The position numbers and the translations under genes are program-made. A DNA stretch of 64,000 nt from contig NC_067403.1 of NCBI RefSeq assembly GCF_016432865.1, forward strand, positions 258,664,001 through 258,728,000. The letters run 5' to 3'. Shown in pieces: positions 7,190 through 32,848 of the stretch (positions within the stretch are counted from its first letter, which is position 1; every line of letters starts with the position of its first letter). The stretch comes from Antechinus flavipes. Its lineage: Eukaryota. The notes beneath the pieces are model-generated. The model was given only the letters and a program-made list of their open reading frames with translations. It was not told the origin of the DNA and searched no databases.

Positions 7190-7302
7190 GGATGCAAAGG
7201 AAGTAAATGAAGGGGTTCATGCAGGTGTTCATACAAGGCAGGTGAGAAGTGAGCCAGTTATGCATGAGCATATTATACATGCGCGCGCGCACACACACGT
7301 AC

Positions 7303-7333
<31 letters not shown>

Positions 7334-8021: not shown

Positions 8022-8133
8022 GGGAGGTAATCCCAGCCCCACAAAACCTGCTCCTCTAAGATGCCCTGGAGACACAGAGACAGAGATGGGTATTAGGGCT
8101 ATTTACTCCCATCTCCACCTTCAAGAGTGAGAG

Positions 8134-8865
8134 CATGATGCAAAAATTTTAAATAAAATATTAGCAAAGAAATTGCAGCAACTTATCAGCAGGATAATAC
8201 ACTAAACCAAGTGGGATTTATACCAGGAATGCAAAGTTGGTTCAGTATCAGGAAAACTATTAATATAATCAACCATATCAATAACAAAACTGAAAGAAAT
8301 TATATGATAATCTCAATAGATGCAGAAAAAGATTTTGACAAAATATAGCACGCATTCCTATTAAAAACAGTAGGGAACATAGGGATAAAGGGAACTTTCT
8401 TTAAAATAATGAGCAATATCTATCTAAAAGCAGAGCAGCAAGCATTATTTGTAATGGAGAGAAGCTGGATGCATTCCTAATTAGATCAGGGGATGATACG
8501 AGGATGTCCATTATCACCACTATTATTCAACATTGCACTAGAAATATTGGCTTTAGCAATAAGAAAAGAAAAAGAAATTACCACTATTAGAATAGGCAAT
8601 AAGGAAATAAACCTATCATGCTTTGTAGCTGATATGATGATTTACTTAGAGAATCCTAGAAAATCATCCAAAAATTTAGTGAAAACAATTAACAGCTTTA
8701 GCAAAATTGCAGGATATAAACTAAACCCACACAAATCACCAGCATTTCTATGTATTACTGACAAAGCCCACCAGCAAGAGATAGAATGAGAAATTCTATT
8801 TAATAGTCTGCAGACAAAATAAAATACTTAGGGATCTACCAGACAAGACAAAACTGAAAATTTTT
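8134..8865 (+). mobile_element. L1 ORF2 (RT) fragment
   Basis: [17 protein letters not shown] and FVADMMIYLENP motifs. Duplicated at 20580-21300. Confidence 0.9.
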
Positions 8866-9733
8866 AAGCCCTCAGTGTTCTCTAGGGACTTTAACTTCTA
8901 GGAGGGACACTGACCTGCAAGCACATGACCTTTAATTACTTAGGGAATTATGGAATTTTATTGAACAGTCTCCCAAGAGTAGTTTAGAACAAATTGGTGA
9001 GGTTTGAAAGGGACCCCAAAAGGTTAGGTTCATAGACCAAATCGTGTTGTGAGGTATCTCAAAAGAATTTGCAGGCTTGAACCCATTTCCAGGTCAAAGG
9101 ACAAAGTTTATTGTAAATGCCAATTGAAGCAGTCTAAATTTCAGGAGAAGCAAGGAGACAAATTTATAAAATTAATCATATTATTGATATGCTAACTTAG
9201 TGCCCTAGAGGTAGAACCAAATGATCTCAAGAATTTGATTATCACTGATCAGAAGATCTAGGAATATCTTAAAGCCAGAAGATTTTGGAATCATTGACAG
9301 ATAAAATTATTAGAACAATAGCATTCTTTGATCTCAGGGCCTCAGGATTGATTCCAGAGCCAGAAGATTTAGAGTCATTGACAGATTGTTAGAAGAGAAG
9401 CCCCCCTAAAGTTAGGGGACATTAAAATTATTGATGTCTCCCCCAGAAGCTATATTGCATCAAAAGGAAGTATCGGTATTGCTAAATTCATTTTCATTTT
9501 TTCTTCCTGAAGTTACCCTTTGGCAAAAAGTCCAGAGAAATAGAACTTTAGTTGGCTCTTCTGCATACTAGAGACTAAACAAAATATCACTCTAAATGGG
9601 TGAATCTAAGTGGAAAATTTGATCAAAACTTTTTGTGTTGTTGATACAAATTGTTACAAAATTACATTTTTGATAACTCTAAGAGAATTAGTAAAATTAG
9701 GCTGAAAACCTAAACCTTAGCTACAAATGGTGA

Positions 9734-11844: not shown

Positions 11845-11940
11845 TTGTTCAGTGTGTTTCTCTGTGTGTGTGTGTGTGTGTTTCCTGTGTGGTATACATG
11901 TTGTAATGTATGTTTGTGTGGTGTGTGTGTTATGTGTGTG
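11845..11940. repeat. Degenerate (GT)n tract at the left edge of unit 2
   Basis: Directly visible. Confidence 0.85.
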
Positions 11941-12978
11941 AAATGATGTATCTCCTTCCCTTGTATTGGTCTCATTAGTTTGTGCCCTGTCATATATCAC
12001 CCCTACAACACCTGCATTCGTTAGGAACTGGGGCATGAAGAGTGAAGAGAGATTGGAAAAGAGTCACAGAAACCCAGAGAGACCTGGACAGAGAGGACAC
12101 AAAAAGTCTTGCCCATTATCTGAAGAAAAGGATTTGACTTAGCTGGAAGAGGAAGAGGTGGGGGGAAGGGAAAGGAACCCTGGTAGGGAAGGGAAGGGAA
12201 CAGAGGATAGAATTGGAATAGGTTCCCAGAGGCCTGAAGGAACCTAGTGGATCAAGTCTAAGAGGAAACCAGGTGGGCAGGGTCATAGTTCCTAGAACCT
12301 TGAAAAGACTGACCTGAATCCATGACTTCATTTACAAAATGACAGGGTGGCCTGAGACCTTCAAGGATAGATTTCTTCTTCCTGTACTATTTAGGACAAG
12401 GGCCATTTGTTGTAGATGTTTCCTCTGGGCTGGTAGCAGGTGAAACCCTGGACCTCACTTCCTAGGTAAAAAAACTCTCCAGCAAGCTAGAGGGCTTCAA
12501 AGAGCACAGAGCACTGGGTCTGGATCAAGAAGATCTGAATTCAAATCCAGTCCCACATACACTGAACCTCTTCCTGCCTCAGTTTCCTCAAGTGGAAAAT
12601 GGATATCCTGAGAGCACTTATTTCTCATGTAATATTGTGAAGATTAAATGAGATATTTGTAAAACATACAGGTTGGTTCCTTGTATAATTTTGTTCTTTA
12701 ATCATGTGAGTCTTTGTCAACTTGGCAGCGAATGGAGTGTTTTGTCATTTCTGTTTCTAGCTCATTTTGCAGATGAGTAAATTGAGGCAAACAGAGTTAA
12801 ATAATTTGGCCAAGGTCACAGAGTTGGCAAGTGTCTCAGGTCAGATCCCAGTTGTTCCCATTCCAGATCCTGGAGCTCTACCTTCTGCCATCCCCACCTG
12901 CCTGGCTTACACCTAATAAATGTTTGCTCATCCCTTAGAATGGAAATTCTGGACCCAAGCCTTAAGAATGACAGAGGA

Positions 12979-13241
12979 TTTTCGTTCCGAGTTGTTTTTA
13001 CCTTTTGAATCCAATTCTCCCTATGTAACAAGAGAACTGCTCGGTTCTGCAAACGTATATTGTATCTAGGATATATGGCAACATATCTAACATATACAGG
13101 ACTGCTTGCCATCTAGGGGAGGGGGTGGAGGGAGGGAGGGGAAAAATTGGAACAGAAGCGAATGCAAGGGATAATGTTGTAAAAAAAATTACCCTGGCAT
13201 GGATTCTGTCAATATAAAGTTATTATAAAATTTTAAAAAAA
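12979..13241 (+). mobile_element. 5'-truncated young L1 3' end, just downstream of MRGPR copy 2
   Basis: TSD aa(g/t)aatgacagagga at 12964-12978 and 13242-13256. Empty site in unit 1 at ~1091. Confidence 0.9.
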
Positions 13242-13356
13242 AATAATGACAGAGGAAATTGTGCTTTTCCTGTCAGAGAGGTGGGAAGGGGCTGCAGGTG
13301 GCCTGGAGCAAGGGGTTATTTCTTGGGCCTCATCCCTGGGCCTCTTGTTCTTAGCC

Positions 13357-14307
13357 TCATGGTGAGGTCTCCTGGGTGTTGCTGTTGGAGATGTCCCTCA
13401 TCCCACCACCCAACTCCTGCTCCTCCCCCAGGGCTCTCTGCAGGACCAGCCTGAGGGGCTCCCTCCTTTTATGCCCTCGTTTTCCCACGAAGAAGTAAAT
13501 GAAGGGATTCACGCTGCTGTTCACACAAGCCAGGGACTGAGAGAGGCTATAAGGCATGAGTTCTATTCTGAGGCGATGATTTATGAAATCCTCGATCCCC
13601 CAGGGCAGGCCACAGAGCAGGAACACGAGGATGAGCAGGACCAAGAGGTAGAGCCTGGGGGGCCGCCGGAGCCGGGAGCTGCACTGGACCCTCAGCAGTA
13701 GAGTCAGGCTGGACAAGCACAGGACGCAGGTGAGGAGGAGGAACCACAGGAAATAGATAATGAGGAAGTTGCCACAGAAGGGTTGAGGAGCCACATACAA
13801 CACAGTGACAAACTCTGTGACTTCGATCATCCCGGCCAGAATCCAGAGCCCGGCGCAGACCACAGCAGACAAGTGCTTGGGGCGGCGACATCTGTACCAG
13901 AAGGGGAAGAGCACGGAGAGACAGCGCTCGGTGCTGATCGCGGCCAGGAGGCTCATTCCCGCAGTGTAGGACGTGTATTGGAGGTAGACCACGGCCGTGT
14001 ATATTATAGAATAAAAATAGGTAGCAAGTCTTCTCAAGGAGATCAGAAAGGAGCAGCAGAGGAAGAGGGCGTCGGCCGCCGCCAGGTTGAGGATGTAGAC
14101 AGAATAGGGGGTCCTCCGGATGCGGAAGCCCAGGAGCCACAGGACGGCGCTGTTCCCCAGCAGCCCAAGGGAGACAACAAGCAGAGAGAACACGTCCATC
14201 CAATCATAAAAATGAAATCCTCCAGGTGTCCCAGAAGCCTCACTCACATTTAGCTTTCCCTCCGTAGCACCATATTCCTGTTGCTGGGGTGTAGGGGACA
14301 TAGCCAT
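13357..14307 (-). CDS. MRGPR-family GPCR copy 2, 316 aa, duplicate of copy 1
   Basis: YILNLAAAD, STERCLSVLFPFWYRC, LCGLP and NSSVNPFIYFF motifs. Flanks are homologous to those of copy 1. Acceptor 45 nt upstream of the ATG. One-codon deletion in TM6. Confidence 0.92.
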   Translation of the reverse strand: MAMSPTPQQQEYGATEGKLNVSEASGTPGGFHFYDWMDVFSLLVVSLGLLGNSAVLWLLGFRIRRTPYSVYILNLAAADALFLCCSFLISLRRLATYFYSIIYTAVVYLQYTSYTAGMSLLAAISTERCLSVLFPFWYRCRRPKHLSAVVCAGLWILAGMIEVTEFVTVLYVAPQPFCGNFLIIYFLWFLLLTCVLCLSSLTLLLRVQCSSRLRRPPRLYLLVLLILVFLLCGLPWGIEDFINHRLRIELMPYSLSQSLACVNSSVNPFIYFFVGKRGHKRREPLRLVLQRALGEEQELGGGMRDISNSNTQETSP

Positions 14308-17300
14308 GGTGGGGGGTCCCAGCCCCAGAAAGCCCTGCTCCTCTCAGACGCCCTGGGGATGCAGAGACAGAGAAGGGCTTACTCCCATCTCCACCTTCAA
14401 GCATTAGAGCCTCTCCTCCCCAGAAGTGTAGGTCAAGGGTAAGCAATGAATAATATTCTAGTCTCACTTACTAGTGAGAAAAAGGGTTATTTCACTCATA
14501 TTGGTAACCAATTATTCAATTAGGATGAAGACTTCTTCGTTCCTATTTACTCATCCAGAAACCAGCCCCTTGTAGGTTATTAAGTCAGTTTCCAAAGGAC
14601 ATTGTTGGTAGATGAGGCATATGGAGTTTTATTGATCAATCTCTCAAAATCATCTTAGAACATTGCTAAACTCTGCATCATTCTCATTTTTTCTTCCCGT
14701 GGTTACACTTGGGCAAAAAGTCTAGAGATATGGAAATTTAGCCAGCTCTTCTATATACTAGAGATTGAACCAAAACAGCCCTTTCAATGGGTGAATCCAC
14801 TGGCAAATTTGACTAAAGCAATTTTGTTCCTCAATTACATCTTTTGATAAGATTCTAAAAGAATTGTTTCATAAAATACATCCTGATTAATTGATTGATA
14901 GAGAAAGGATTATCTCTTAACTCTGGCTTTGCTCTGGGATTTCTTAGGATAACTGAAAGAAACAAGGAAGCAGTAATGAGAGGGTGCGAGAGTCACCATG
15001 ATTTTTTTTTATGTATATAAGCAACAAAAAATAATGGAAACATATTTGCAATGAGGTTTGGGTATTGTCACTAATCATTATAAATCAAAATTGATTGCAT
15101 TGAAAATATTGTCATGGCAGGAAATTAGAGAATTGAACAAATCCTTACATGTACAAAAGGAATAAAATATATTTGCACCTATTTCTCAGGAGTAAGATCT
15201 GAGGGAACCACAGACCCTTTAATAAACTGCCATTGGTTCAGAGCTTTCCCTCAGCCTATCTCATTGCAAGTTGGACATTTGAAATTTCCACATCACCAAA
15301 ACTAACTCACATAAGCTAAATTTGTTATGTTCCACATCCACAGTCAACCAATTCTAGAAAGGAGAGATGGAAATGAAACTGTTTCTTCTCTGATTTTCTT
15401 TGTCAAACTGCAATAAACATTTGCTCAGTACTTACTTGGAGATTCTGGGCCCAGAACAATTTTTACCACTAAGCTTGGCGATGGAATACAAGGACAATGA
15501 AATTGTCCCTATCCTGAAGTAGCTGGTATCTTACTGAGAGGAAGCAGAGGGGAGCAGAATGCAGCCCCAGGTGTTTACCTTGTGCCAGACCAGACAATTG
15601 ATCAGCACAGAACATGTCCAACAGTAGATGTCTGGGATTGTTGATTGTTATGGCTTCAGTTTCTCTTTATGGACAAATGATGAGATTTAGGGCCAAATGT
15701 CTGGGAAAGGATAGATCAGTTAACTCGGACCAAGAATAGGAAAAAAAAATTAAGGAGATGTGGGATTCACTCATACCCTGAGCTAGAACCTGCATCTGGA
15801 GAATTGGGAATATGATCTTTCATATCCTTGTTCAGAGACTTCTTAAGCGCTCCAAACTCATTCTCCCTCCCAGCTGGGGGCCATGTTACAAAAAGTTTGA
15901 AGATTGGGTATTGCTCTTGCCCTCCAATGGAAAAAGAAAGCATAAGACCTCAGAAGCAGAAATTTCTGCTGCTCCCCACTTCCCAGGCTGATGTTTTCCA
16001 GCTTTGCACATTGGAAATACACAAAGTCATAAAGGATTAAACACAACTTTATAAAGGATTAAACACAATTTTATAAAGGATTAAACTCACCAAAATTCAA
16101 TGATGAGAAATAACGATGAAGAAAGAGTACAGTCTCTGAACTTCCCTTTTTCCTCCCCAGATTCCTGTGCCTGGTTCTGCTATTGAGGCATGTATCTGTC
16201 CTTCTCACTGGGACATGAGTGGCAATAGGAGTAGGATTCAGGATAGTTCCTCTCTTTCCATTATATACTGTCCCCTCCCCTTCTCCTGTTAACATCTACT
16301 AGTCTAAAAGATTTTCTATTTGCTTTCATGTTGAAAAGGTGGAGATTTTCCAAACACTGGCCTCAAGTAATAAATTTCCTGAAGCCTTCAAGTGCAGATA
16401 AAGCTTCCTAAATGGTGTTGCTCTGGAAAAGACTTTAATTCTATGTAAATACTAACATCTACTCTAGGACTTAAGAGGAATTACTGTTAGATTGATGTGA
16501 CCCATTATCCCCAATTAACTGGTCTTTTCCATTATCCTTGCATGTTTTTCACTCATGGTAGTTACAACTTGAGTGAAAAAAAAAATTCCTTTTTGTTCAC
16601 ATGGTACATTAGATCCTTTTCTAGCTCTTAGAGAACTTTTCTGAAAAGAAATTGTGTATTCTCTTGTTACCAGAGTTTTATAGAGATTGAAGAGGCTCAG
16701 ATTTTTTCAAACTACAAGTGGGTATTGGAATGAGGCTTTGGCTGAATCCATGAATTTCAAGGTTCAAATAAGGAAAACTGTATATACAGTTATGAAGGCA
16801 GATATAGACATATAAATAAATATATACATATATATATGGTGTGTACATTTCTTCATTCACAAAATATATACATACAATATACATATGTCTATGAGAACAT
16901 ATAGTAATATCACAAATAAGCACACAGTATAATGTACCTTTTTATAATCACGTATTTTTATAATTTCTTATTTTTCTAAAAAAAACAGCTTTATTGTTAA
17001 GGACCATGCCTAAGTGTGAAGGGACAGGTGGATTCTCCGAGGGTTCCCACATCTGTGAATATAACACACTTGAAGGAATTGCAAAGCAGCCTTTACTGAT
17101 GCAGATGTGGCTTGTGAATTGGAGAATGAAATAAATTGGAGGCAAGAGGGAAGAGGGGAGAGGTCACAGAATGCAACTGCCTCTTAGTCTCCTTGTATCC
17201 TTATCGTCCTCTCACATGAAAGGATCTATTCTGCTGATCAAAATTAGATCCCCAGCAGCCACTAGCAGGTGGCTCCCGTAATACTTTTATATCTTCAAAA

Positions 17301-18987
17301 TATATGCAAAGATAGTTTTCAACTTTCTTCCTTGCAAAACTTTGTCTTCCAAATTTTTCTCCCTCTGTTCCCCCTTTCTCCTCCCTTTGACAGCAAGTAA
17401 TATATGTTAAATATATGCAGTTCTTCTATATGTATTTCCGCATTTATCATGTGGCACAAGAAAAATCAGATCAAAAAAAGGAAAAAAATTAGAAATTTGA
17501 AAAAGCAAGCAAACAACAACAAAATGGTGAAAATACTCAGTTATGACCCACATTTTAGTCCCCACAGTCCTCTGTTTGGATCTCTTGATGCTCTCTCTCG
17601 ATCACAAGTCTATTGAAATTGTCATGAATGGCCTCCATGAGCTTTTGTTTCCAAATCTAGTAGCCTTTTCTTAATCCTTTTTCTCTTTGACATTCTCACC
17701 TCCCTAGATTTTGGGGTAACCTCTTCTTGTTGTACTTTTACATATCTAACAGTTCCTTCTCAGTATCCTTTCCTAGATCCTCATCCAGATAGTACCATCT
17801 AACGATGGTTAACCTTTGGGATTTCTTTTTTTATTCCCTCAGCTTAGCATAGTGCCTGGCACATAGGAGGTACTTAATACATGGTTACTGACTTCCTGAC
17901 TGACTGTTGATACCACCAGGACTGTAGGCAAAGGTCATCCATATAATTCTGGCAGAAACTATTATGGGGTTTTGTTTTGGGAACCTGAAACTTATGTTTT
18001 GGCAACTAAATATTCTTGGTTCCTGAGGTGTTATGAGGTTCAAATGAGGTATAACTTTTGGTAAGGTACTTCTATAATATTTAAAGTACTATAGAAATGC
18101 CAATTAAAGTAATAACATATGATTTTCAATGTTAGTAATACTGATGATGATGATGATGATGATGATGATGGTTTAGTCACCCAGCCTTCCTTTTCTTTAT
18201 GTTCTCTTTCTTGGAGAGGAAGTTGATTTACCTATTGTGGATGTGGTTGAACTATATTCATTAGTATAACTGCTGTTCCAGTTTACTTCAAGTCATACAT
18301 GACCATTCCTATTCTAGGTGCTAGTAAGGAATATATAGCTGTGCATGAAGACTCAAAGTGAGGTTACTAAGGATAAGAATGCGTAGCATATATGAGGCTG
18401 GGCACATGATGTCTCATTGGGAGGTTCCGAAAAGTATCTTTCTTGTAGTACTTGCACAGTTCTGGAAATTAATATTTTTCAATCACTGACTTCTTAAGTG
18501 GTGAATATGTATTCACTGACATATTATACCCACCTTCACAGAGGGAATAAAAAAGTAAAATCAAAGTAATCTAAGATCAGGACTAATCAGGCAGCAGGAG
18601 ATTTGATATGTGGTGGTACTTTAGTTCTAGTATCTTGTTAGGATTTGTACCTCAAAGCAACATCAGATCAAACATCTCTTGACCATAGCTCTTTGTTGCT
18701 GAGATTGTGTGTGCCTCTGATACCCCCCTTTCAAGGCAGATTATTGACCATTCTGTATTCTATATTTGGATAATCTTCATCTATGATGCCCCAATGCCAT
18801 ATTTTCTTTCTCCTCTCCTCCTATCTTCCTTTCCATTATCAATTTAATGAACATGGGATCTCTAAGCTTGGCTCTTTTTTGTTTCTCCTCAAAATTTCTT
18901 TGACAATATTGGACTCTTAAGGAACTGTATAATTTCCCCAAAATTTCATCTTATAAGTATTTGATCATCATTTAGTCCATTCAAAAT

Positions 18988-19354
18988 TATAATGTCTGGG
19001 CTAGCTCTCTGGAGGGTCTCAGGATCAAAGTCTTTGGTCTTTAGGAGGAGAAGTGAAGGAAACAAGCAAACTACCACGTGATTCTTCAAAGATGGATCCT
19101 GGACTCTGGAGTTTAGAGTCTGAAATCTTCTCTCCTGAGCATGCTGTGGCAGAGAGACTCTGACTTTCTCCCTCAGCCCTCCAATCCAATCCTTCCTGTG
19201 ATTACATCATTACAACACATTCAGCTGGCACCAATCTTGAGGAGAACCATCACATCACCATATCATCTAAGAATGTGTGTATGGGACCTGCTGATTAGAT
19301 TCAAGTAAATCCTTTCAGAGTTCCAGCCCTTTGCAATCTTTCCAGCCCTCTACA
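18988..19354 (-). mobile_element. Solo LTR, unit 2 specific
   Basis: Perfect 6-bp TSD caaaat (18982-18987 / 19355-19360). Empty site in unit 1 at ~6800. Shares its terminus (ctagcccagacatta) with 26495-26845. Confidence 0.88.
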
Positions 19355-19689
19355 CAAAATATTCAAACTTGTTTGCCTTTTTTCCCTCAGGTAATTGGGG
19401 TTAAGTGACTTGCTCAGGGTCACAGAGCTAGGAGGTGTTAAGTGTCTGAAGCTTTTCTTAAACTGTAATACAAGGAACTTTTCTTTTTCTCTTGGCAGAT
19501 ATTGAAGAGTACTCATGTGGAAGAATCTTTATACATTTGACTTAGAATTTTAACTCTTTCTCTATTTCTCTTTATGTACAGCTGACTAATTAAATATTTC
19601 ACTTTGATATCTATTGTTAGCTCTATATTTCTATATAAATTAAGGTCTTTTAATTTCTTATAATTGTATAGGGATAACTAGCAAAAGAT

Positions 19690-20473
19690 GCGAAGGAAGT
19701 AATTGAAGGGGTTCATGCAGTTGTTCACACAAGGGAGAAAGGAGACAGTCAGGCATGAAATGTTTGTGGGAGTGATAATTTATGAAATCCCAATCCCCCA
19801 GGGCAGGCCACGGAGCAGGATCAAGAAGCCGGTAAGAAGCCAGTAGGTAGAGCCTGGGAGGCTGCCAGCACCAGGAGCTGCACTGGACCCTCAGCAGCAG
19901 AGTCAGGCTGGACATCCATGGGATGCAGATGAAGAGGAGGAACCATAGGAAATAGATAATGAGAAAGTTGAGACAGAAATGTCGAGGATACACATAAATC
20001 TGAGCAACAAACTCTGTGACTTCTATCATCCTGGCCAGAGCCTAGAGCACACCCCGAAGCAGACTTGTGCTTGGGGCAGTGGCATAGGTACCAGATGGAG
20101 AAGAGCACAGGTGGATAGCGCTTGGTGCTGATTATGGCCAAGAGGTTCAGGCCCATGTTCTAGAAAAGGTATCTGAGGTAGAGTATGATCTTGAACTTTA
20201 AATTGTCACACAAATATTCAACAAATCTAGTTATGGAGATCTGAAAGAAGCAGCAAGGCAAGAAGGTGTCAGTCCCCCGCCAGGGTGAGGATGTAGACCG
20301 AGAAGGGATTCCTCTGAATGCTGTTCCTCACCAGCCCAAGCAGGGCAATTAGCCGAGGGGGATCTGTGTCCAGTTATATCCACAAAATTCTCCAGGCAGA
20401 CTCCCATTTGCTCTGCTTTCAGTGGCACTGTCATTAACATATTCTCATTGCTGGGGGTGGGGAATACAGCCAT
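19690..20473 (-). pseudogene. MRGPR pseudogene B, duplicate of A
   Basis: Same early frameshift as A (MAV.PTPSNENMLMTVPL). Fragmented TM3-TM7 ORFs at 19658-20029 and 19821-20156. Confidence 0.9.
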
Positions 20474-20579
20474 AGCAGGTAGTCCCAGACCCACAAAACC
20501 TGCTCTTCTCAGAGGCCCTGCAGACACAGAGACAGAGCTGGGTACTAGGGCTATTTACTCCCATCTCCACCTTTTTAAA

Positions 20580-21300
20580 AAATAAATATTTTAAATAAAA
20601 TATTAGCGAAGAGATCACAGCAACTTATCAGCAGGATAATACACTAAAACCAAGTGGGATTTATGCCAGGAATGCAGGGCTGGTTCAGTATCAGGAAAAC
20701 CATTACTATAATTGACCATATTAATAACAAACTGACAGAAATTATATGATAATTGCAATAGATGCAGAAAAAGGTTTTGACAAAATACAGCACCCATTCC
20801 TATTAAAAACAGTAGAGGGCATAGGGATAAAGGGAACTTTCTTTAAAATAATAAGCAATAGCTATCTAAAACCAACAGCAGCAAGCATTATTTGAAATGG
20901 AGAGAAGCTGGATGCATTCCCAGTTAGATCAGGGGTGATGCAAGGATGTCCATTATCACCACTATTATTCAACATTGCACTAGAAATATTGGCTTTATCA
21001 GTAAGAAAAGAAAAAAGAAATTACTGGAATTAGAATAGGCAATAAAGAAATAAAACTGTGATGCTTTGTAGATGATATGATGATATACTTAGAGAATCCT
21101 AGTAAATCATCCAAAAACTTAGTGGAAACAATGAACAGGTTTAGCAAAATTGCAGGGTATAAAATAAACCCACACAAATCATCAGCATTTCTATATATTA
21201 TTGACAGAGCCCATCAACAAGAGTTAGAAAGAGAAATTCTATTTAAAATTCTGTAGACAAAATAAAATACTTAGGGGGTCTACCTGTCAAGACAAACCTA
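20580..21300 (+). mobile_element. L1 ORF2 (RT) fragment, duplicate of 8134-8865
   Basis: Same sequence and same junctions as the unit 1 copy. Confidence 0.9.
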
Positions 21301-21359
21301 AAAAAATTTTAAGCACTCATTGTTCTCCAGGGACTTTGACTTCCAGGAGGGTCAATAGA

Positions 21360-21468
21360 TGTTGGAAACTTTACAAACTGCTAACTCATTAGAGTTGATA
21401 GATTATTGATCTGATCTTACAAGAAGATGTTTTGGGCCAGAACCTGAAACAAGGTACTAAATAGAACT
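21360..21468 (+). mobile_element. 5' fragment of an ERV LTR
   Basis: Homologous to the start of the solo LTR at 25115, including the inner tgtt(a/t)tgggccagaac motif. Confidence 0.75.
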
Positions 21469-21768
21469 GGAGAAGTGTACAAGGTACATACAAAATAGAT
21501 TTTAAAAAGTAATCCTGGAGAGGGAGCCTCCTTTAGAAAGAGGGATGTAAGCCAAGTACCTGAAGAGGAAGAAGGTATAAGAAAGACTAGAAAGGTAGGA
21601 AAGAGCCATGTCATCAAGGATTTCAGTTGCCAAACAGAATTTTATATTAGATGCTTTATATTAGGGACTCACTGGAATGTATGGAATGTGGGCAATGAGG
21701 TGTGTCACATGGTCTACCTGTATTTTAAGAAGATCCATTGGAAAGCTGAGTAGAGGATGGACCTGTTA
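21469..21768 (+). repeat. Direct repeat X, upstream copy (L2-like sequence)
   Basis: About 97% identical by eye to 24428-24905 once the L1 insert there is removed. Both copies end in ggacc-tgtta. Confidence 0.9.
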
Positions 21769-22200
21769 TGGGCCAGAACTTGAAACAAGGTGTTAACTCA
21801 CTGGAATGGATAGAGACAATGTTCATGTACTTAGTTCACGCCTTTAAGTGTTCACACATTAGCGTTCCAGATTCACAAGTTCAGTGGAGGAGATTCACAA
21901 GTGACAACTCCCACAATCCCACTCTTGGAGGAGAAGTCAACTTTTGAGTTCACACCTCTAAAAGAACATATAAAAGGACAAGCCCACTAAAAGCTCTCAG
22001 AACCTCAGCCAAGAGTCAGTGGGGGAGATTGAGACGAAGGATTCGGAAGAGGAGAAGCTGAAGCTGGCAGAGGCAGAGGCAGAGACAGAAGCAAAGGACT
22101 AGCAACAGGAGCTCTTGGAACCAAGGAGGGAGATAGGCCTCTAAGAAAGCTAACTGGGCCCAAGGAAGGGGACAAGACTTGGAAGGAGAAAATAAAGATT
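21764..22200 (+). mobile_element. ERV LTR (U3-R), truncated just after its AATAAA
   Basis: Homologous to the LTR at 25216-25840 but lacks the last ~140 bp (U5). TATA at 21969, AATAAA at 22191. Confidence 0.85.
21969..21975 (+). promoter_or_regulatory. LTR TATA box, candidate promoter of the R3HCC1L retrocopy
   Basis: TATAAAA at the expected U3 position. There is no ATG between it and the R3HCC1L start at 22212. Confidence 0.6.
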
Positions 22201-22211
22201 GAGGTAGCATC

Positions 22212-24242
22212 ATGCAGCCTGATGTTGAGAAATGCACACCTCGGGCCAGAAAGCCAGATATGGCCCTTTATGTACCCAAAGCTCGAAGAGATTCAGTACT
22301 TCCTTTATCAAGTCATCAGGAAATGAATTATAGTCACCTGAATGCTATAGTGAAGCAAGGGCAAGAAGAAAGTCATGTGCCCTCGAAGAATGATGTCTTC
22401 AGAACTAGTTCTGAACTTCAGAGACCTATTAGTAATCCTAGCAGACAAGAGCACAAAGCTAGGGATGGAAAGAGACCTAATTCAAAATCAAAAAAAGGTA
22501 CATACTTCAAAGAAAGAAACAGAGGAAAATTCCATGCTCAAAAGGGAACTGCAGAGTCCAAAGAAATGTTCAACAAAAATCAACAAAAGATCCTAAATCC
22601 TAGTAGTTTTTCCAAAGTACCTTCACAAATACATTTTAAACCAAAGAAAGAAGAGAAATTTATGGATTCCAAAAGCAACGATATGACAGTATCACAAGGA
22701 CTACTTATTTCACAATCTAGTATGGAAACCTGTGAGACTCAGACTTCAAGTATACCATTCCAAAGTGTGAAATTATGTGATTTCAGAAAGGAAGAACTAA
22801 GTGGGACGAGTTATGCAGAAGGAGACTTGAAAAACAGTGTAAACGCTGATTGTAAGGTAGTAGAGATGGTGTCTACTTCTCAGTTTTCAGATGATCTGGT
22901 AGGTTGCAATTCTATTTTGAATCCTGACCATGTGCTAGCATCTAGCACAAAAGATGATGCACCCATGTGCTATGACCCTGATAATTTAAGTGACTTTGCT
23001 GATGAAATATTTACAGGTAGGGAACAGCAGAATGACAGTGACAACACTAACCAAGCATGTATGAGCATTACAGATGGCATATCTGATGAGACATGTGTGG
23101 GCAGCACCTCGACAATTGTGGGCGGAATCACTGAACAGGCTTGTAGCAACATCAATAGTTTGCTAGACTGTATGGGAGTAAGTACTTACTTAACCCCTCT
23201 TCTAGTAGCTAATAGCACGGAGTGTGAGAATGAAAATTCAAGCCGCTTGACAGTTTGTGCAGACAGTTACACTGAAGATAGTTCATCCAGTTATCAGGAG
23301 TCCATGGGAGGACTAACAAAGGACTTGTCAGAGTATACCTCTTTAATACCTATAAAGGAGGAAGCATCCAGCAATCATGGTTCCTGTTTAGACTCCGAAC
23401 TCTGTATGTTAAATAAGCCTGAATTGCTTTCCAGCAAGTCCTTGAACAGTAATCTGGATGGTGCAGATGACATCACAGAGTCTTTGAATAATCTAAGAAC
23501 TGGTGAAGAGTTCAAAACAATTGAGAATGATGCCCCTGGGAAAGTAGAATATACAGTATCTTCAGAACAACAATCAGAACTGAAAGCTCCTCATCCTTCC
23601 TCCAATGCTGAAAGTGCTTCTACAGAGGAAAGCTGGGAGTCTTTATTTAATGATGATGGAGACTGCCTGGATCCGCGACTTCTAGAAGAGTTATCGGGGA
23701 ATTCGAAGAACGGGAAGAGTCTCCAGGAACCTAGATTTGATTATTACAACTGTGAAGTTCCTGAGCTTGACATCAGCGATTGTGAACTTCCTCATGTCAT
23801 TGAAATCTATGACTTCCCTCAGGAATTTCGCACCGAAGACCTCCTACGAGTCTTTTGCAGCTATCAAAAGAAGGGATTTGCTATCAAATGGGTGGATGAC
23901 ACACATGCTCTAGGAGTGTTCTCCAGTCCAATTACAGCCCGCGACGCCCTGAGCAGTAAGCACATGATGGTGAAGATCCGGCCGCTCTCTCAGGCCACAA
24001 GAGCAGCCAAGGCCAAAGCAAGAGCTTGCGCTGAGTTTCTCCAGCCCGCCAAGCCTCGCCCTGAGACCTCGGCGGCCCTGGCCCGGCGGTTAGTGATCAA
24101 TGCTCTTGGGGTGAGGAGTCAGCGCACCAAAGCGGAGCGGGATGCCGAGCTCAAGAAACTGCAGGAAGCTCGTGAAAGAAAGCGGTTGGAAGCAAAGCAA
24201 AGGGAGGACATCTGGGAAGGCCGGGACCAGGCCGCTGTGTGA
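22212..24242 (+). CDS. R3HCC1L: Intronless, intact retrocopy of R3HCC1L (GIDRP88), 676 aa
   Basis: The N-terminus RARKPDMALYVPKARR and the C-terminus EESWESLFNDDGDCLDPRLL...PHVIEIYDFPQEFRTEDLLRVFCSYQKKGF...KWVDDTHALGVFSSPITARDAL...ERKRLEAKQREDIWEGRDQ match the R3HCC1L protein as I recall it. It is one continuous ORF across what are several coding exons in the parent gene. Kozak has A at -3. Confidence 0.95.
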   Translation: MQPDVEKCTPRARKPDMALYVPKARRDSVLPLSSHQEMNYSHLNAIVKQGQEESHVPSKNDVFRTSSELQRPISNPSRQEHKARDGKRPNSKSKKGTYFKERNRGKFHAQKGTAESKEMFNKNQQKILNPSSFSKVPSQIHFKPKKEEKFMDSKSNDMTVSQGLLISQSSMETCETQTSSIPFQSVKLCDFRKEELSGTSYAEGDLKNSVNADCKVVEMVSTSQFSDDLVGCNSILNPDHVLASSTKDDAPMCYDPDNLSDFADEIFTGREQQNDSDNTNQACMSITDGISDETCVGSTSTIVGGITEQACSNINSLLDCMGVSTYLTPLLVANSTECENENSSRLTVCADSYTEDSSSSYQESMGGLTKDLSEYTSLIPIKEEASSNHGSCLDSELCMLNKPELLSSKSLNSNLDGADDITESLNNLRTGEEFKTIENDAPGKVEYTVSSEQQSELKAPHPSSNAESASTEESWESLFNDDGDCLDPRLLEELSGNSKNGKSLQEPRFDYYNCEVPELDISDCELPHVIEIYDFPQEFRTEDLLRVFCSYQKKGFAIKWVDDTHALGVFSSPITARDALSSKHMMVKIRPLSQATRAAKAKARACAEFLQPAKPRPETSAALARRLVINALGVRSQRTKAERDAELKKLQEARERKRLEAKQREDIWEGRDQAAV

Positions 24243-24417
24243 ACATCATCCAGAGAAAGAGATAATTTCACGGATTCAGAAGGCTCCAGGCTAAAAGACC
24301 TTACTGAGTTTCCTTTGTTTGTGAGCAAGGCAGAGACTATGGGAACAGAGAAAAAGTAATATGCTCCATCGGTCAGCTCGGCTTTCTGGATTTGGAAGGA
24401 ACTTATGTTCTAAAAGT

Positions 24418-24434
24418 GAGGGGAGAGGGAGAAG
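24418..24434 (+). other. Polypurine tract at the left edge of repeat X'
   Basis: 17 purines (gaggggagagggagaag) followed by TG. Its function as a PPT is inferred. Confidence 0.45.
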
Positions 24435-24476
24435 TGTACAAGGTACATACAAAATAGATTTTAAAAATTAATCCTG

Positions 24477-24639
24477 TATACTGTAACCTATTCAACATGT
24501 AAAGGATTGCTTGCCATCTGGGGGAGGGGTGGAGGGAGGGAGGGGAAAAATCGGAACAGAAGTGAATGCAAGGGATAATGTTGTAAAAAAAAAAAAAACT
24601 ACCCTGGCATGAGTTCTATCAATAAAAAGTTATTAAAAA
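24477..24639 (+). mobile_element. Short 5'-truncated L1 3' end inside X'
   Basis: L1 3' UTR with G-rich tract and A tail. TSD aaaaa(t/g)taatcctg at 24463-24476 and 24640-24653. Absent from X. Confidence 0.88.
24621..24626 (+). terminator. AATAAA from the L1 insert, candidate poly(A) signal for the retrocopy
   Basis: Sense-strand AATAAA followed by an A-run, ~380 nt after the stop codon. Confidence 0.45.
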
Positions 24640-25114
24640 AAAAAGTAATCCTGGAGAGGGAGCCTCCTTTAGAAAGAGGGATGTAAGTCAAGTTCCTGAA
24701 GAGGAAGAAGGTATAAGAAAGACTAGAAAGGTAGGAAGGAGCCAAGTCATCAAGGATTTCAGATGCCAAACAGAATTTTATATTAGATGCTTCAGGTTTA
24801 GGGACTCACTGGAATGTATGGAATGTAGGCAATGAGGTGTGTCACATGGTCTACCTGTATTTTAAGAAGATCCATTGGAAAGCTGAGTAGAGGATGGACC
24901 TGTTAAATAACCCTGCAAGCACATGACCTTTAATTATTTAGGGAGTTATGGAATTTTATTGAACGGTCTCCCAAGAGCAGTTTAGAACAAAATGTTGAAG
25001 TTTGGAAGGGACCCCAAAAGGTTGGGATCATAGACCAAAGGGTGTTGCGAGGCATCTCCAATGAATTTTCAGCCTTGTCAAGGGACAAAGTTTATTGTAA
25101 ATGCCAATAGAAGC

Positions 25115-25840
25115 TGTTGGAATCTTTATAAAGTGTTAAGTCATTAGAATTGACAGAGACAATAATTCTCTAATTTAGCATGGTTCAGTATGATTGATCT
25201 GATCCTACAAGGAGATGTTATGGCCAGAACTTGAAACAAAGTACTAAGTGGAATTGATGGAAGCAATGCTTGTGTGCTTGGGTTTGTACCTTTAAGAGTT
25301 TATACATTAGAGCTCACACATTAGAGCTTACACATTAGAGTTCACAAGTACGGGAGATACACAAAGTTAAATTTGTAACTTTGTGAAGTCACACCTCCCA
25401 TAATCCCACTCTGGGAGGAAGAGTCGACCTTTGAGAGAGCATAAAAACAGCTGAGCTCAGTCAGCAGAGTTCAGTTGAAAAGATTGAGAGGGGAGCGTCA
25501 GTCAGTTCAGAAGAAGTCACGAGTCGGAGTTGAGCTAGAGCCAGGAGTCACTTTGGAAGATTGACAGAGCGAGAGTTCAGTTTGGGAGACTGAGAAGCTA
25601 ATCGGCAGTTGGGCAGAACCAAGATTCAGAGAGAGGCTGAGCTAGCAACAAGAGCTCCTGGAACCAAAGAAAGCTAACTGAGCTATTTTGGGAGAAACAA
25701 TAAAGAACTACTTTAACACCTGGCTGCATTTGGAGTGATGATTACGTTGAACTGAAACTAAGGTTGCTCCAGAGAACCTCCCCAAGAAACCTGCTCCCAG
25801 AGAGAACCATCAAATATATTATACAAAAGAGAACACCACA
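25115..25840 (+). mobile_element. Solo LTR (ERV2/ERVK-like by TSD length)
   Basis: TG...CA termini and a 6-bp TSD agaagc/tgaagc. The empty site in unit 1 reads aat-tgaagc-agtc (~9124). Contains a TATA-like cataaaa and AATAAA. Confidence 0.88.
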
Positions 25841-26494
25841 TGAAGCAGTCTAAATTTCAGGAAAATTTAGCAAAGAAACGGGAGGAGACAAATTTATAAA
25901 TTTTATCATATTATTGATATGCTAACCTAATGGCCTAAGGGTAGAACCAAGGAGTGGTCTCAAGAATTTGATTATCACTGACCAGCAGACCTGTGACTAT
26001 CCTAAAGCCAGAAGACTTTAGAATCATTGGCAGATTAAATTGTTAGAACAATAGTATTTTTAGATCAGAGGGCCTCAGGATCAGATTCCAGAGCCAAAAG
26101 ATTTAAAGTAATCAACAGATTGTTAGAACAGAAGTCAGGGGACCTTAAAATTATTGATGTCTCCCCTAGAAATTATATTACATCAAAAGGAAGTATCAAT
26201 ATTGCTCAATTCTTCATGATTTTCATTTTTTCTTCCTGTAGTTATATTTAGGCAAAAAGTCCAGAGAAATAGAACTTCAGTCAGCTCTTCTGCATACTAG
26301 AGACTAAACAAAATAGCACTTTAAATGGGTGGAAATTTTGACCAAAACTATTTTGTATTGTTACAAATTGCTACAAATTGTTCTAAAAATTACATTTATT
26401 TGATAAGACTAAAAGAATTAGTAAAATTAGGAGGAAAAAGAATTCTCTTAGGCTGACAACATAGACCTTAGCTACAAAAATGGTGTTAAGTTCT

Positions 26495-26845
26495 TGTTGA
26501 GGGCTGGAAATCTATGCTTGAAACAAGGTGTTAACTCAGTGGAATTGATGAGGTGATGGTTCTCTAGTTCATATATAAACTTAGTGCTTAGCATGGTGAT
26601 GTAATGGTTCTCTACACATATTCAGCATGCTGTAATGATATAATTGTACAAAGGTATATAAGGGCTGAGGAATGGAAATGAGACATTCCTGGTGGCTTTC
26701 CTGCCTCCTATACGCCTCCACTAAGGCCAAGACTGGGCCAGAAGAAAGATTCTAGACTCTATTGTAGACCATTCTCGTGGTGTCTATCCTGCTGAAGTGA
26801 AGGCCCATCCAAAGGACCTCCAGAAAGCTAGCCCAGACATTAGAA
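26495..26845 (+). mobile_element. Solo LTR
   Basis: Begins tgttgagggctgg..cttgaaacaaggtgttaactca like the other LTRs. Contains tatataag and ends agcccagacattaga. No TSD found. Confidence 0.75.
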
Positions 26846-29043
26846 TGATATTTCTTCAAAAAGGAAAGTATAAATTAACCAAGCTATCAGATACTGTTTT
26901 CTATCCTTATCTACCCAGCCCATACATTGAGAGCATGTCTCAGAGTCAGCAAAAGTATAACTTTGTTTAAATTTGAACTTATGTGTTACTTCCCCATTTG
27001 TTGTAGCTTTTGTGCTTAGAATTTAAGGCCACGTTCTCAGCCAATGAGGATGAACCAACAGGGAGAGGATGGTGTTGCTGGGAATATATCTATATATTGT
27101 CTATGCTGCCTATGCTGGGAGCCTCATTTTCACTTCTTATTCGCTAGGAATGACACCCATTTCTCATGAGAAATTAATAAAACTTTTTCTTTACACTTTG
27201 AGAGATCTCTGAAATTTATTGAACGGGTTATGCACCACACAGTTGTATACTTAAAAGAGGAGGCAGATAAAATCTTGACTTTGATATGTCCTATAGAACA
27301 ATTTAGAAATTCAGCTTGATTTAATGCAGGGTTCGAGAAATGAATGGACATTTGTTTTCCACAGGTATGAAAATTAAATTGAAGAAATGAAATTTAAATT
27401 AGAAAACTGAAACCCATAAGGACATCAAGAAATAATCAAGGGTAAAATTTATCTTGCCCCCAAAGAATGTAAGCTCCTTGGGGGCAGGCCCAGCCTTTTG
27501 TAATCATATTTCTGTGGCCTGAGATTTGAAGAGAATCTTTTGTTCTTTGCCCTTAGCCCTTCTTTGTTATCTTTCCCTCCCTCTAGAATGGAAGCTCCTT
27601 GGGAGGAGGGATTGACTGTGTAATGAGAGGTAGAGATTCTTGACATGTAACTGCTGTAACATTCAATTGATGGGGAATCAGGAGAGAGATTCGTACTTCA
27701 GGATAGGAAATAAAATGCTGCCCTTGAAGTCTCAAATGTGTTTATTCAACACATTCTTGTAAGAATGTAAAATAAATCTTTCCTGCATTCATCAGTGACT
27801 TCCCCAGAATCACACAGCTAGTAAACATCAATGTCCAGTTTTGAACTCACCTCTTTCAGACTCCAGATTTGGAGCTCTATCCTCTCCACTACTTTTCTTT
27901 CTTTTTTTTGACATTCTGGTTTACCTGCCAATTTTTATCTTAGAGGCAAACTAGCAGGGTCTCTTTTCCTATATATTTTTCCTAAACAGATTATTTAATA
28001 TTAAAATAGTTGCAAGAATTTCACAAAAGTAATTTTTTAGTTGATCTGATTTCATTTTCCCCACTTTAGGAGCTCCTACATTTAATATACATACATATTC
28101 ATACCCACAATATCAATAGGAAAGAATCTCAGAGGGAAATCATTAGCAATGGAGGAGGTCAGGAAAAATGTCTAGAAGAAAAAAGGATCTGAGCAATTGG
28201 AGGAAGCCAGGAGGCAGAGGTTTGGGAGAGAAAATTCCAGAGCTGGGGAAACACAGGGAAAAAGTCTACGGGAAATGGAATGTCCCATATCACTGGCGAG
28301 TATAGCTGGTAGGAAAAGGTCAGCTTGGGAAGGGCTTTATAAGTGGATGATTGTTCGGTGTGATGGGAAGTCACTGGAGTTTATTGAGGGAGGGGGAAGA
28401 AGGACATGACATGAGCTGATCTGTACTTTAAGAAGTTCAAGTTGGCATCTGAATAGAGGAGAGATCCCAAGGACCAAGTAGAAGGCTATTGCAATTGCCC
28501 AATGTGATGGGATGTGGGCACCAGGTGGCAGCTAGGTGGGGGGAAAGAATGGGATTATACAATGAAGGAAATAATCCCTTGGCAACACATTGGAGATGGG
28601 AGGTGGATGTGAGTGAAGAAGGGGGATACCAAGGTCATTTGTAGCCTGGGTCACTAATCATGATGATGGCACTGGGTTGAACATCTTAGAAATATTGTCT
28701 CCTTTGACCTCCCAATAATACTGTGAGATAGGTGATTGTCTTTTATTTACATTTTGGAAAACTGACAAATATATCAAGCATCCATGGCTAGGAAGTGTCT
28801 GAGACTGGATTTGAACCCAGTTATTCCTAACTCCAGACCCAGTGAGGTCATCAGAGGACAGTTCCTTGTACTTAAAAAGGAAAACACTTTTTTGGCAACT
28901 ACAAAAGTGCTCAGATGGAAAATGAAATATTATAAAATTATCAACCCTTTATTCTCTCCAGGACACAGAAGAAGCATCATTATAGCAAGAGGATTGGCTA
29001 AGAGGTTCCATGGAGTTAATTACTTTACAAAAAGCCAAGGACT

Positions 29044-31894: not shown

Positions 31895-32848
31895 TCACAA
31901 TGTCATCTCTTGGATGCTGGTGTGGGGCATGTCACTTGTCCCACCTCCCAATTCTTGCTCATCCCCCAGAACCCTCTGGAGGATCACTCTGAGGGGCTCC
32001 CTCTTTCTTTTAAAGCTTTGGCTGCCCAGGAAGAAGTAAATGAGGGGGTTCATGCTGCTGTTCACACAAGCCAATAATTGAAAAAGCCAGTGAGGCAGGA
32101 GCCTTCCCTTGAGGTGATAACATATGAGATCCTCGATCCCCCAGGGTAGGCCACAGAGCAGGAACACGAGGACCGTGAGCAGGACCAGGAGGTAGAGCCT
32201 GGGGGGCTGCCGGCTCTGGGAGCTGCACTGGACCCTCAGCAGCAGAGTCAGGCTGGACACGCACAGGACACAGGTGAGGAGGATGAAACACACACCCTCC
32301 AAGATATTAAAGCGACAGAGAACATGCCAGGATATATGAGAGCAAGTGACAAGCCCATTCACCCAGAGTGATCCGACCAGAGCCCAGAGGACAGCGCAGA
32401 CCGAAGCCGACGTGTGCTTGGGGCGGTGACATCGGTACCAGATGGGGAAGAGCACGGAGAGACAGCGCTCGGTGCTGATCGCCGCCAGGAGGCTCATGCC
32501 CGTAGTGTAGAATAGGTAATTGAGGTTCAACATTATTTCATGCTTGAAAAGATCGTGAAAATATCGAACAAAGTTTTCTATGGAGTCCAGCAAGGAGCAG
32601 CAGAGGAAGAGGGCGTCGGCCCCCGCCAGATTGAGGATGTAGACGGAGAAGGGGGTCCTTCGGATGCGGAAACCCAAGAGCCACAGGACCACGCCGTTCC
32701 CCATCAGCCCAAGGGGGGCAATGAGCAGAGAGGGGATCTGCATCAATTCACTCCCCAAAACGGATCTATTACATCTCACTGCTGCCTTGTCATAAACATG
32801 TTCCACGTGCTCAGGTGTGGGAGACGTAGTCATGGTGGGTGCTCCCAT
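31895..32848 (-). CDS. MRGPR-family GPCR copy 3, 317 aa (the ATG at 32833 may be the real start)
   Basis: YILNLAGAD, STERCLSVLFPIWYRC, LCGLP and NSSMNPLIYFF motifs. The TM4/TM5 Cys pair is present. The second ATG has a CCACC Kozak context. Confidence 0.92.
   Translation of the reverse strand: MGAPTMTTSPTPEHVEHVYDKAAVRCNRSVLGSELMQIPSLLIAPLGLMGNGVVLWLLGFRIRRTPFSVYILNLAGADALFLCCSLLDSIENFVRYFHDLFKHEIMLNLNYLFYTTGMSLLAAISTERCLSVLFPIWYRCHRPKHTSASVCAVLWALVGSLWVNGLVTCSHISWHVLCRFNILEGVCFILLTCVLCVSSLTLLLRVQCSSQSRQPPRLYLLVLLTVLVFLLCGLPWGIEDLICYHLKGRLLPHWLFQLLACVNSSMNPLIYFFLGSQSFKRKREPLRVILQRVLGDEQELGGGTSDMPHTSIQEMTL

Follow-up and report, generated by a model that had tools for sequence, protein, structure and literature searches.

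LTR-mediated retrocopies number three in human and eight in mouse (Tan et al. 2016, PMC5131818), and the set includes human FAM8A1_r, which is carried by HERV-K. They lie inside one element having both 5′ and 3′ LTRs, are mostly partial mRNAs, and display microsimilarity at the switch points, one of which is near exon junctions. The mark of pseudogenes derived from circRNAs (Dong et al. 2016, PMC4897178) is a back-splice junction that connects annotated exons. One-ended retroviral integration (PMC5041404) is known from HIV-1 and ASLV vectors in cultured cells, where the truncated second end is joined by host enzymes and the host duplications are usually larger than in the case below.

Here, we analyzed a cassette of LTR fragments and an intronless R3HCC1L sequence in a 64,000-nt stretch of the Antechinus flavipes genome (the window). 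We conclude that it was probably made by the copying machinery of an endogenous retrovirus (ERV), and not by the usual LINE-1 route, and that it is an unusual single case.

Boundaries and composition of the insert

We defined the insert by comparison with an empty paralogous site, using as reference the paralogous MRGPR unit within the same 64-kb window. From the alignment blocks, the site that is empty for both the cassette and a neighboring LTR (LTR-C) was placed at 8900–9135: the region 7011–8909 matches the left flank (19500–21354) at 83%, 8914–9133 matches the segment between the two insertions (24912–25117) at 84%, and 9125–9708 matches the region to the right of LTR-C (25841–26438) at 81%. 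The whole insert thus spans 21360–24905, and all its features are on the forward strand. Relative to the empty paralog no host DNA was lost, and 6 extra nt are present. The 6-mers at 21354–21359 and 24906–24911, the latter preceding the restart of paralog homology at 24912, are candidate copies of a target-site duplication. They are identical at 4 of 6 positions; a match of at least 4/6 is expected by chance in 5.1% of cases (P 0.051), and a match of the first four bases in 0.6%. Target duplications of ERVs are typically 4–6 bp (PMC1779541). Upon inspection of the sequence, we observed no poly(A) tail at the right junction.

The insert consists of 109 nt of an LTR followed by 1.10 copies of one 2959-nt unit, in which the order is an LTR truncated at the poly(A) signal (LTR-B), the intronless R3HCC1L ORF, the 3′ UTR and a segment, X. 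Boundaries of the LTRs were judged against LTR-C (25115–25840), an independent 726-bp solo LTR (TG...CA) outside the cassette, which has a 6-bp target duplication matching at 5/6 positions. The first 109 nt, LTR-A (21360–21468), have their TG exactly on the left junction. This TG at 21360 is homologous to the 5′ end of LTR-C at 25115, and the two LTRs share 94 identical positions, with 15 mismatches and 34 gap columns. LTR-B (21764–22196) represents the 5′ portion of an LTR of a related type, and aligns from its base 1 with another LTR-like element at 26495. It has a TATA-like box at 21969 and ends directly after AATAAA (22191–22196), about 135–140 nt short of the LTR-C end, with neither a U5 nor a PBS behind it. 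A complete 3′ LTR ending in CA is absent from the insert, where just 5 nt of LTR-B follow the second copy of X.

The original prediction had placed an LTR start at three positions. The one at 21764 does resemble a true start, and TGTTA is present at both 21764–21768 and 24901–24905. The motif at 21428, which lies within LTR-A, had to be given up as a start. It recurs at 25216, about 100 nt inside LTR-C, and has 3 fuzzy matches within the window, and so it is internal to a different LTR, whose 5′ end at 21360 is the left junction. The "unit 1" and "unit 2" of that prediction are not tandem duplicates: the empty paralog shows that each LTR inserted separately, at points about 200 bp from one another, and "unit 2" is the independent solo LTR.

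The terminal repeat and the R3HCC1L copy

The terminal repeat is 300 nt long. Its 5′ copy, X (21469–21768), has the LTR-B start as its last 5 nt, and the 3′ copy, X′ (24428–24905), ends with the same first 5 nt of LTR-B. Their identity of about 97%, as originally reported, was borne out: 292 of the 299 aligned bases are identical and 7 are mismatched, with 180 gap columns. X′ spans 478 bp because of a single later insertion (24477–24653), absent from the original prediction, which accounts for 177 of these columns. This is a short A-tailed repeat with AATAAA at 24621 and a 14-bp target duplication (24463–24476 and 24640–24653). It has four further copies in the window at 81–85%, and we take it to be an L1 3′ end or a related SINE. 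The 3′ part of X resembles old interspersed repeats of the window (nhmmer match to 28365–28463, E 0.0008), so X is host DNA, and a polypurine tract at its edge would be a cryptic one. We found no old repeat spanning the edge between the UTR and X′ in a search of the window (24243–24476, best score 120; shuffled sequences 116–120), and a metagenome pattern scan for a UTR/X repeat gave 3 loci, all at about the shuffle level. The UTR and X together may resemble an antisense L2, which would leave the purine run described below incidental.

X and X′ have diverged by 1.2% per branch (95% CI 0.5–2.4%), and the amino-acid-changing divergence on the branch of the R3HCC1L copy is 1.3%. By these figures, the repeat is about as old as the gene copy.

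A single open 2031-bp ORF (22212–24242; 676 aa) covers both the N- and the C-terminus of R3HCC1L, and the parental coding introns are absent. Human R3HCC1L has 10 exons, of which the five final coding exons are conserved to zebrafish (bioRxiv 2024.10.29.620958). The 15-nt leader (22197–22211) probably begins at the 5′ edge of the ATG exon. We base this placement on predicted isoforms of two eutherians, the N-terminally extended ones of marmoset and rat, which share the pattern of the window sequence over the five codons preceding Met but not further upstream. About 106 codons have been lost in-frame at residues 245–247 (around 22944–22955). When we asked by pairwise comparison whether this loss reflects a shared splice isoform, 40 of 124 proteins were flagged; as 39 of these are 746–806 aa long, the flags are indicative of alignment scatter. 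The 3′ UTR (24243–24427) has no AATAAA or ATTAAA and no A tail, and there is no poly(A) signal anywhere in the native UTR plus X; along the circle, the first signal to follow is that of LTR-B.

The protein has 18 private changes. Within the last 207 conserved residues, 6 changes are private to the copy, compared with 1, 0 and 1 in three parents. Its dN is close to the neutral rate, and the ORF would have stayed open by chance with a probability of 4–21%. As judged from these sequence comparisons, the protein is probably drifting, as a relaxed or neutral copy, and we have seen no sign so far that the host needs it. The TATA box of LTR-B lies 243 nt upstream of the ATG, and the copy may thus be transcribed from this putative promoter. 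We found no second copy among annotated proteins, the protein cluster having one member. No other close dasyurid copy was observed among the best 120 of 248 matches (371–1183 aa), nor in the 4 matches among 613 candidates of 30–274 aa, the search covering lengths on either side of 275–370 aa.

The purine run and the origin of the cassette

A 17-nt purine run followed by TG (24418–24434) is a candidate cryptic primer for the plus strand. In 21469–24476, 13 purine runs reach at least 11 nt, this one being the longest, and the terminal repeat starts 7 nt inside it, at 24428. Runs of at least 17 nt are common, with 48 in the window on both strands, 8 of them followed by TG. A breakpoint would coincide with a run by chance in 0.3% (runs of at least 17 nt) or 1.8% (at least 12 nt) of cases, both being post hoc estimates. 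The run followed by TG had been correctly recognized, and so had its tie to the edge of the duplication, which lies at the 3′ end of the longest run of the unit; the repeat does not begin at the TG, as had been stated. A circular or terminally redundant intermediate, also put forward earlier as a circular or tandem one, is the economical source of a 1.10-unit insert. The composite U3 of X plus the old LTR suggested at the outset is complete on the left, but at the right end X′ is followed by no more than 5 nt of LTR. The cassette thus does not qualify as a two-LTR element, and there is no indication of mobility.

We also tested for a cryptic tRNA-Lys PBS at 21769 and obtained no support for it. 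Among the 47 TGG sites of the unit it ranks 5th for Lys3 and 10th for Lys1,2, and 100 of 1025 sites in the window score equally. As the tRNA had been chosen by eye from a comparison of PBS types, the test of these two tRNA types was corrected for 20–25 primers, which gave 0.40–0.47. The window has no tRNA genes.

Our best explanation, to which we give somewhat less than an even chance, is that an R3HCC1L mRNA ending in LTR-B was copied in an ERV particle, with its plus strand primed at the purine run, and integrated in a single step by one sound LTR end; that an ERV was involved in some way is fairly likely. The parent transcript would have had the order CDS, UTR, X and LTR-B, ending through the AATAAA of LTR-B, and this end may also have lent it a likeness to viral RNA. 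As reverse transcriptase copied the transcript, the LTR-B end would have become linked with the beginning of the ATG exon, closing the template as a circle, either by a template switch at microhomology or, about half as credibly, by prior back-splicing. A few letters are shared at the joint, judged against LTR-C as a stand-in. Retroviral replication duplicates U3; in a similar way, priming of the plus strand at the purine run would put X on both ends. A switch onto a co-packaged ERV may then have supplied 109 nt of real U3 and so one integrase-competent end, while the other end, not being an integrase substrate, would have been trimmed and joined via host repair.

Several observations favor this copying in an ERV particle. 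The insert begins at the TG at 21360 without host loss, with 6 extra nt; for a later landing in a pre-existing solo LTR, about 600 nt would have to be deleted up to a point within about 6 nt of the LTR end. It is made of 109 nt plus 1.10 units, with the edge of the repeat in the last 7 nt of the longest purine run, and the joint between LTR-A and X has 4 nt in common with the LTR-C homolog, used as a stand-in for the true donor. The absence of poly(A) signals before that of LTR-B and the similar age of repeat and gene copy point in the same direction, as do ends having neither an A tail nor an L1-type duplication, both of which are present in the later insertion within X′. Precedents are the LTR-mediated retrocopies (PMC5131818) and one-ended integration (PMC5041404) introduced above. 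The explanation is weakened by the absent 3′ LTR, as LTRs are expected at both ends (PMC5131818), by the want of a U5 or PBS in LTR-B and of support for the tRNA-Lys site, and by a target duplication matching at 4/6, which is poor for an insert about 1.2% old. Moreover, the repeat begins 7 nt inside the run and not at the TG, the proposed route does not account for a right end 5 nt into LTR-B, several switches are required, and the prior is low, as L1 makes thousands of mammalian retrocopies, compared with about ten made by LTR elements (PMC5131818).

This dominance of L1, which outnumbers all other origins of mammalian retrocopies by a wide margin, is what recommends an L1 retrocopy, or an L1 template jump between two mRNA molecules, into an older solo LTR-A, with a local head-to-tail duplication and flanking deletions leaving 1.1 units. 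A-tailed insertions do occur within the window, the differences between LTR-A and LTR-C at 15 of 109 positions fit an older LTR, and the 4/6 target duplication also fits an older insertion. We consider this origin unlikely, as it takes three or four events with breakpoints falling by chance at the end of a purine run and at the poly(A) signal/exon start, and another within about 6 nt of the LTR-A end without host loss; the A tail is absent, and the repeat is, within wide limits, no younger than the copy. Rather unlikely, in our view, is a whole-ORF circle back-spliced from LTR-B to the ATG exon and reverse-transcribed for 1.1 rounds, with X as a new LTR-like repeat whose limits were set on one side by the purine run and on the other by a primer site where LTR-B begins. 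The joint of LTR-B and the gene does lie on the proposed exon edge and reads AAG|AT, the right end of the insert is exactly one base ahead of TGG in the 5′ copy (as are 1.6% of positions), and circRNA-derived pseudogenes have no A tails but an excess of LTRs in their flanks (PMC4897178). However, the LTR-C position homologous to the LTR-B cut has no GT donor (in this one relative), the tRNA-Lys test was unremarkable, the exon edge depends on the two eutherian isoforms, and the cases that we considered are circles of internal exons, not of last exons (PMC4897178).

The 1.10 units are also what a cut tandem or circular DNA is expected to yield, for example a piece of a tandem array, or of a circle excised from an earlier retrocopy elsewhere, that was patched in. 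We find such copying at the DNA level improbable: a second copy was seen neither in annotated proteins nor among the best 120 of 248 matches nor in the 4 short ones, and the left end at the LTR TG is left without account. An assembly artefact is highly improbable, since the two copies of the repeat are set apart by 7 substitutions and small gaps, X′ alone carries an insertion flanked by its own duplicated target, the flanks meet the empty paralog cleanly, and the protein has 18 private changes. Among public sequencing runs, 20 of 24 listed rows contain some of the stretch and 6 contain at least half, the highest share being 0.69; we gave these shares no weight.

Quite unlikely, but far-reaching, is the proposal that a host mRNA with its full ORF, closed into a circle, was made into provirus-like DNA by a retroviral reverse transcriptase, with terminal repeats derived from ordinary 3′ UTR sequence. 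If true, a cryptic purine tract would have served on one side and a cryptic primer site on the other, and the gene's own LTR, which supplied the poly(A) signal, would have moved in front as a ready promoter; the cassette would then be a marsupial fossil in which a new LTR arose together with a retrogene that had its promoter from the outset.

Comparison with known retrocopies and integrations

Most retrocopies lack a promoter when they arrive. Should the parent gene carry X and LTR-B at its 3′ end, permutation during reverse transcription would place a downstream LTR ahead of a complete ORF, and LTR-driven retroposition would extend to marsupials. A retrocopy preceded by a repeat of its own 3′ UTR would then be a structure to screen for. 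Being a single copy with a drifting protein, the cassette has modest biological weight. We found no evident literature on R3HCC1L retrocopies or permuted retrogenes, and no published case of LTR-driven retroposition in marsupials; in the main text of PMC5131818, the words "marsupial", "opossum", "circular" and "polypurine" do not occur.

Like L1-mediated processed pseudogenes, the cassette places an intron-free version of a spliced mRNA at a new site, but it lacks a poly(A) tail and a clear L1-type target duplication, and has a terminal repeat and an LTR end instead. It resembles the circRNA-derived pseudogenes (PMC4897178) in being non-colinear, without a poly(A) tail and close to LTRs, and differs from them in its LTR-to-exon joint, putative donor and complete ORF. 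A normal LTR end combined with a truncated, presumably host-joined end is shared with one-ended integration (PMC5041404), from which the cassette is set apart by a duplication of at most 6 nt. With the LTR-mediated retrocopies (PMC5131818) it has in common an intronless host sequence fused to an LTR, the absence of clear L1 hallmarks, what may be short shared letters at a joint and a putative LTR promoter upstream; it departs from them in its whole ORF, two LTR types, permuted order, host repeat at both ends and missing 3′ LTR. As the 3′ LTR is absent, the cassette is not a canonical member of this class, but it works like an LTR-mediated retrocopy.

Insertion boundaries and gene copy

The cassette (21360-24905) lies in a cluster of Mas-related GPCR genes with local duplications. 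Four open single-exon Mas-related GPCR ORFs (7tm_1; 1186-2163, 13357-14307, 31895-32848 and 41179-42282) are all on the minus strand, and the best match of one that we tested was MRGPRX1; broken MRGPR paralogs are located near 7340-8134 and 19690-20570. Segmental duplications with 81-87% identity link 4-6807 to 11931-18987, and 7011-9708 to 19500-26438, the latter pair being the source of empty sites. Compared with the empty paralogous unit 7011-9708, homology ends at 21354 and restarts at 24912 with zero host bases lost, and a second gap (25115-25840) corresponds to LTR-C, a solo LTR that runs from TG to CA between 6-bp target duplications matching at 5/6 positions. By this comparison, units 1 and 2 of the original note are separate insertions.

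The insert begins at TG 21360, which is homologous to the 5' end of LTR-C; LTR-A, the 109-nt LTR piece at 21360-21468, aligned there with 94 identical, 15 mismatched and 34 gap columns. Therefore, the motif at 21428, previously taken for an LTR start, is internal to the LTR. The alignment of LTR-B (21764-22196) with another LTR-like element, at 26495, begins at the very first base of LTR-B, and 21764 is probably the true start of a related LTR type. The 6-mers bordering the insert agree at 4/6 positions (P 0.051), the first four agreeing (P 0.006). In the LTR-A/LTR-C type (21360-21468, 25115-25330), an additional 5' module of 70-100 nt is in part a repeat of the LTR-B-type start, which suggests growth by internal duplication. 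Two more LTR-like elements of a related type, 26495-26846 and ~18976-19354 (minus), resemble each other, and three LTR-like insertions occur within a stretch of ~5.5 kb.

The core of the cassette is an open R3HCC1L ORF of 676 aa (22212-24242). As the human gene has 10 exons (bioRxiv 2024.10.29.620958), this single-ORF copy is a processed one. R3HCC1L of Antechinus flavipes is its closest named relative among the best 120 of 248 protein matches, with 37 differences over 676 aligned residues (devil 44, dunnart 50); informative sites, excluding residues 243-252, unite it with Antechinus seven times, with devil once and with dunnart never. The species carrying the copy is therefore probably an Antechinus. 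About 106 codons are missing in frame at residues 245-247 (~22944-22955), a position at which the devil parent also shows a small gap; a splice isoform, a reverse-transcription slip or a later deletion may be the cause.

Terminal repeat and its joints

The predicted ~97% repeat was confirmed: an alignment of X (21469-21768) to X' (24428-24905) gave 292 identical and 7 mismatched positions plus 180 gap columns. A single A-tailed repeat in X' (24477-24653) accounts for 177 of these columns and is bordered by a 14-bp target duplication. X holds one copy of those 14 bp, and therefore this insertion postdates the X/X' duplication. It is in sense orientation and brings the sole AATAAA in the 3' part of the cassette, at 24621, where a transcript of the gene copy could terminate.

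One repeat period is 2959 nt long; with the later insertion taken out, 21469-24905 spans 1.10 periods. The LTR-A joint is exactly where X starts, and X' stops 5 nt into LTR-B; local copying of a 300-bp piece would start at that joint only by chance. Both cassette ends are more readily seen as cuts across a longer template, circular or tandem, which would have had UTR-X at one side and X-LTR-B at the other.

X may be an antisense L2 extending into the UTR, an identity that sequence comparisons did not confirm. The 3' part of X has a match at 28365-28463 (E 0.0008) and a weak one at 53591-53747 (E 0.11); the best local score in the window is 201 versus 136-149 for five shuffles. The similarity to 28365-28463 breaks off where LTR-B starts; thus, judged from sequence, X is an old repeat of the host that LTR-B was inserted into or joined to. 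A signal scan found no AATAAA or ATTAAA in the UTR and native X, and the next poly(A) signal in circular order is that of LTR-B, at 22191. This arrangement fits a parent mRNA ending in X plus LTR-B.

Retroviruses prime their plus strand at a purine tract, a step that duplicates the sequence downstream of it. The joint between LTR-A and X falls within the final 7 nt of the longest purine run in the unit (24418-24434, 17 nt; 13 runs of at least 11 nt), a placement with a post hoc chance of 0.3-1.8%; four nt at this joint also occur in the LTR-C homolog. The run had been proposed to mark the start of the duplication; the edge is in those 7 nt and not at the TG.

The joint between LTR-B and the gene leader lies directly after AATAAA, 15 nt upstream of the ATG. 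In the five codons preceding the Met, but not beyond them, the window resembles N-terminally extended isoforms of marmoset and rat (such an extension is present in 2/129 proteins compared), suggesting that this joint is an exon edge. For LTR-mediated retrocopies, PMC5131818 reports that one switch site is always near exon junctions.

In the 5' copy, the base at the right end is followed directly by a TGG, as is true of 1.6% of positions. A tRNA-Lys primer site there was evaluated using Lys3 and Lys1,2 sequences from PMC8775094 (Lys3 is also printed in bioRxiv 2025.05.12.650695); its energy (-13.2 kcal/mol vs -39.9 for a perfect site), rank (5/47 within the unit; 100/1025 window sites equally good) and shuffled primers (10/400 matching equally well) gave no support. 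The unit's best match, 22155-22174, is inside LTR-B, 36 nt before AATAAA and at no joint; at -23.4 kcal/mol for both Lys primers, it is possibly a chance match.

Mode of formation

The strongest mechanistic clue is the left end at the LTR's TG with flanks intact. Had LTR-A come first, ~600 nt would have to be removed to within ~6 nt of its end; a chimeric DNA inserted in one step via its single good LTR end would need no such removal. One-ended integration of this kind, in which host enzymes join a truncated second end, is described for HIV-1 and ASLV vectors (PMC5041404). We tentatively favour, by judgement rather than calculation as for all the readings below, template switching that yielded an ERV-made retrocopy of R3HCC1L mRNA. 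Mammalian LTR elements are documented to have captured host mRNA, in 3 human and 8 mouse instances vs thousands by L1 (PMC5131818). An L1 retrocopy followed by local rearrangement is the first, though rather unlikely, rival. A reverse-transcribed circular RNA is slightly less probable still: circRNA-derived pseudogenes are a documented class (PMC4897178), but back-splicing is weakened because the position of LTR-C matching the LTR-B/gene joint, in this one LTR relative, has no GT donor. A DNA-level copy of an earlier retrocopy is doubtful, and an assembly artefact very improbable.

Age, function and relation to known retrocopies

X and X' diverge by 2.3%, i.e. 1.2% per branch (CI 0.5-2.4%), and the copy carries 18 private amino-acid substitutions over ~1423 sites (1.3%). 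The two values are in accord, which is what formation of the repeat at insertion and later drift of the protein would produce. In the conserved last 207 residues, we observed 6 private changes versus 1, 0 and 1 in three parents. The chance of the ORF staying open is 4-21% under assumed indel ratios, and weak selection on the copy is possible. A TATA-like box lies 243 nt upstream of the ORF start with no intervening ATG. The exact protein is present in NCBI collections as a one-member cluster, which is not a sign of expression. We judge the cassette to be real, unusual, known from one copy and probably neutral.

In open-licence PubMed Central and bioRxiv, we found no report of an R3HCC1L retrocopy, of a marsupial LTR-made retrocopy, or of this permuted form. 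The cassette works like the LTR-mediated retrocopies but departs from them in the two-LTR test, and therefore we have not filed it as a canonical member of that class.
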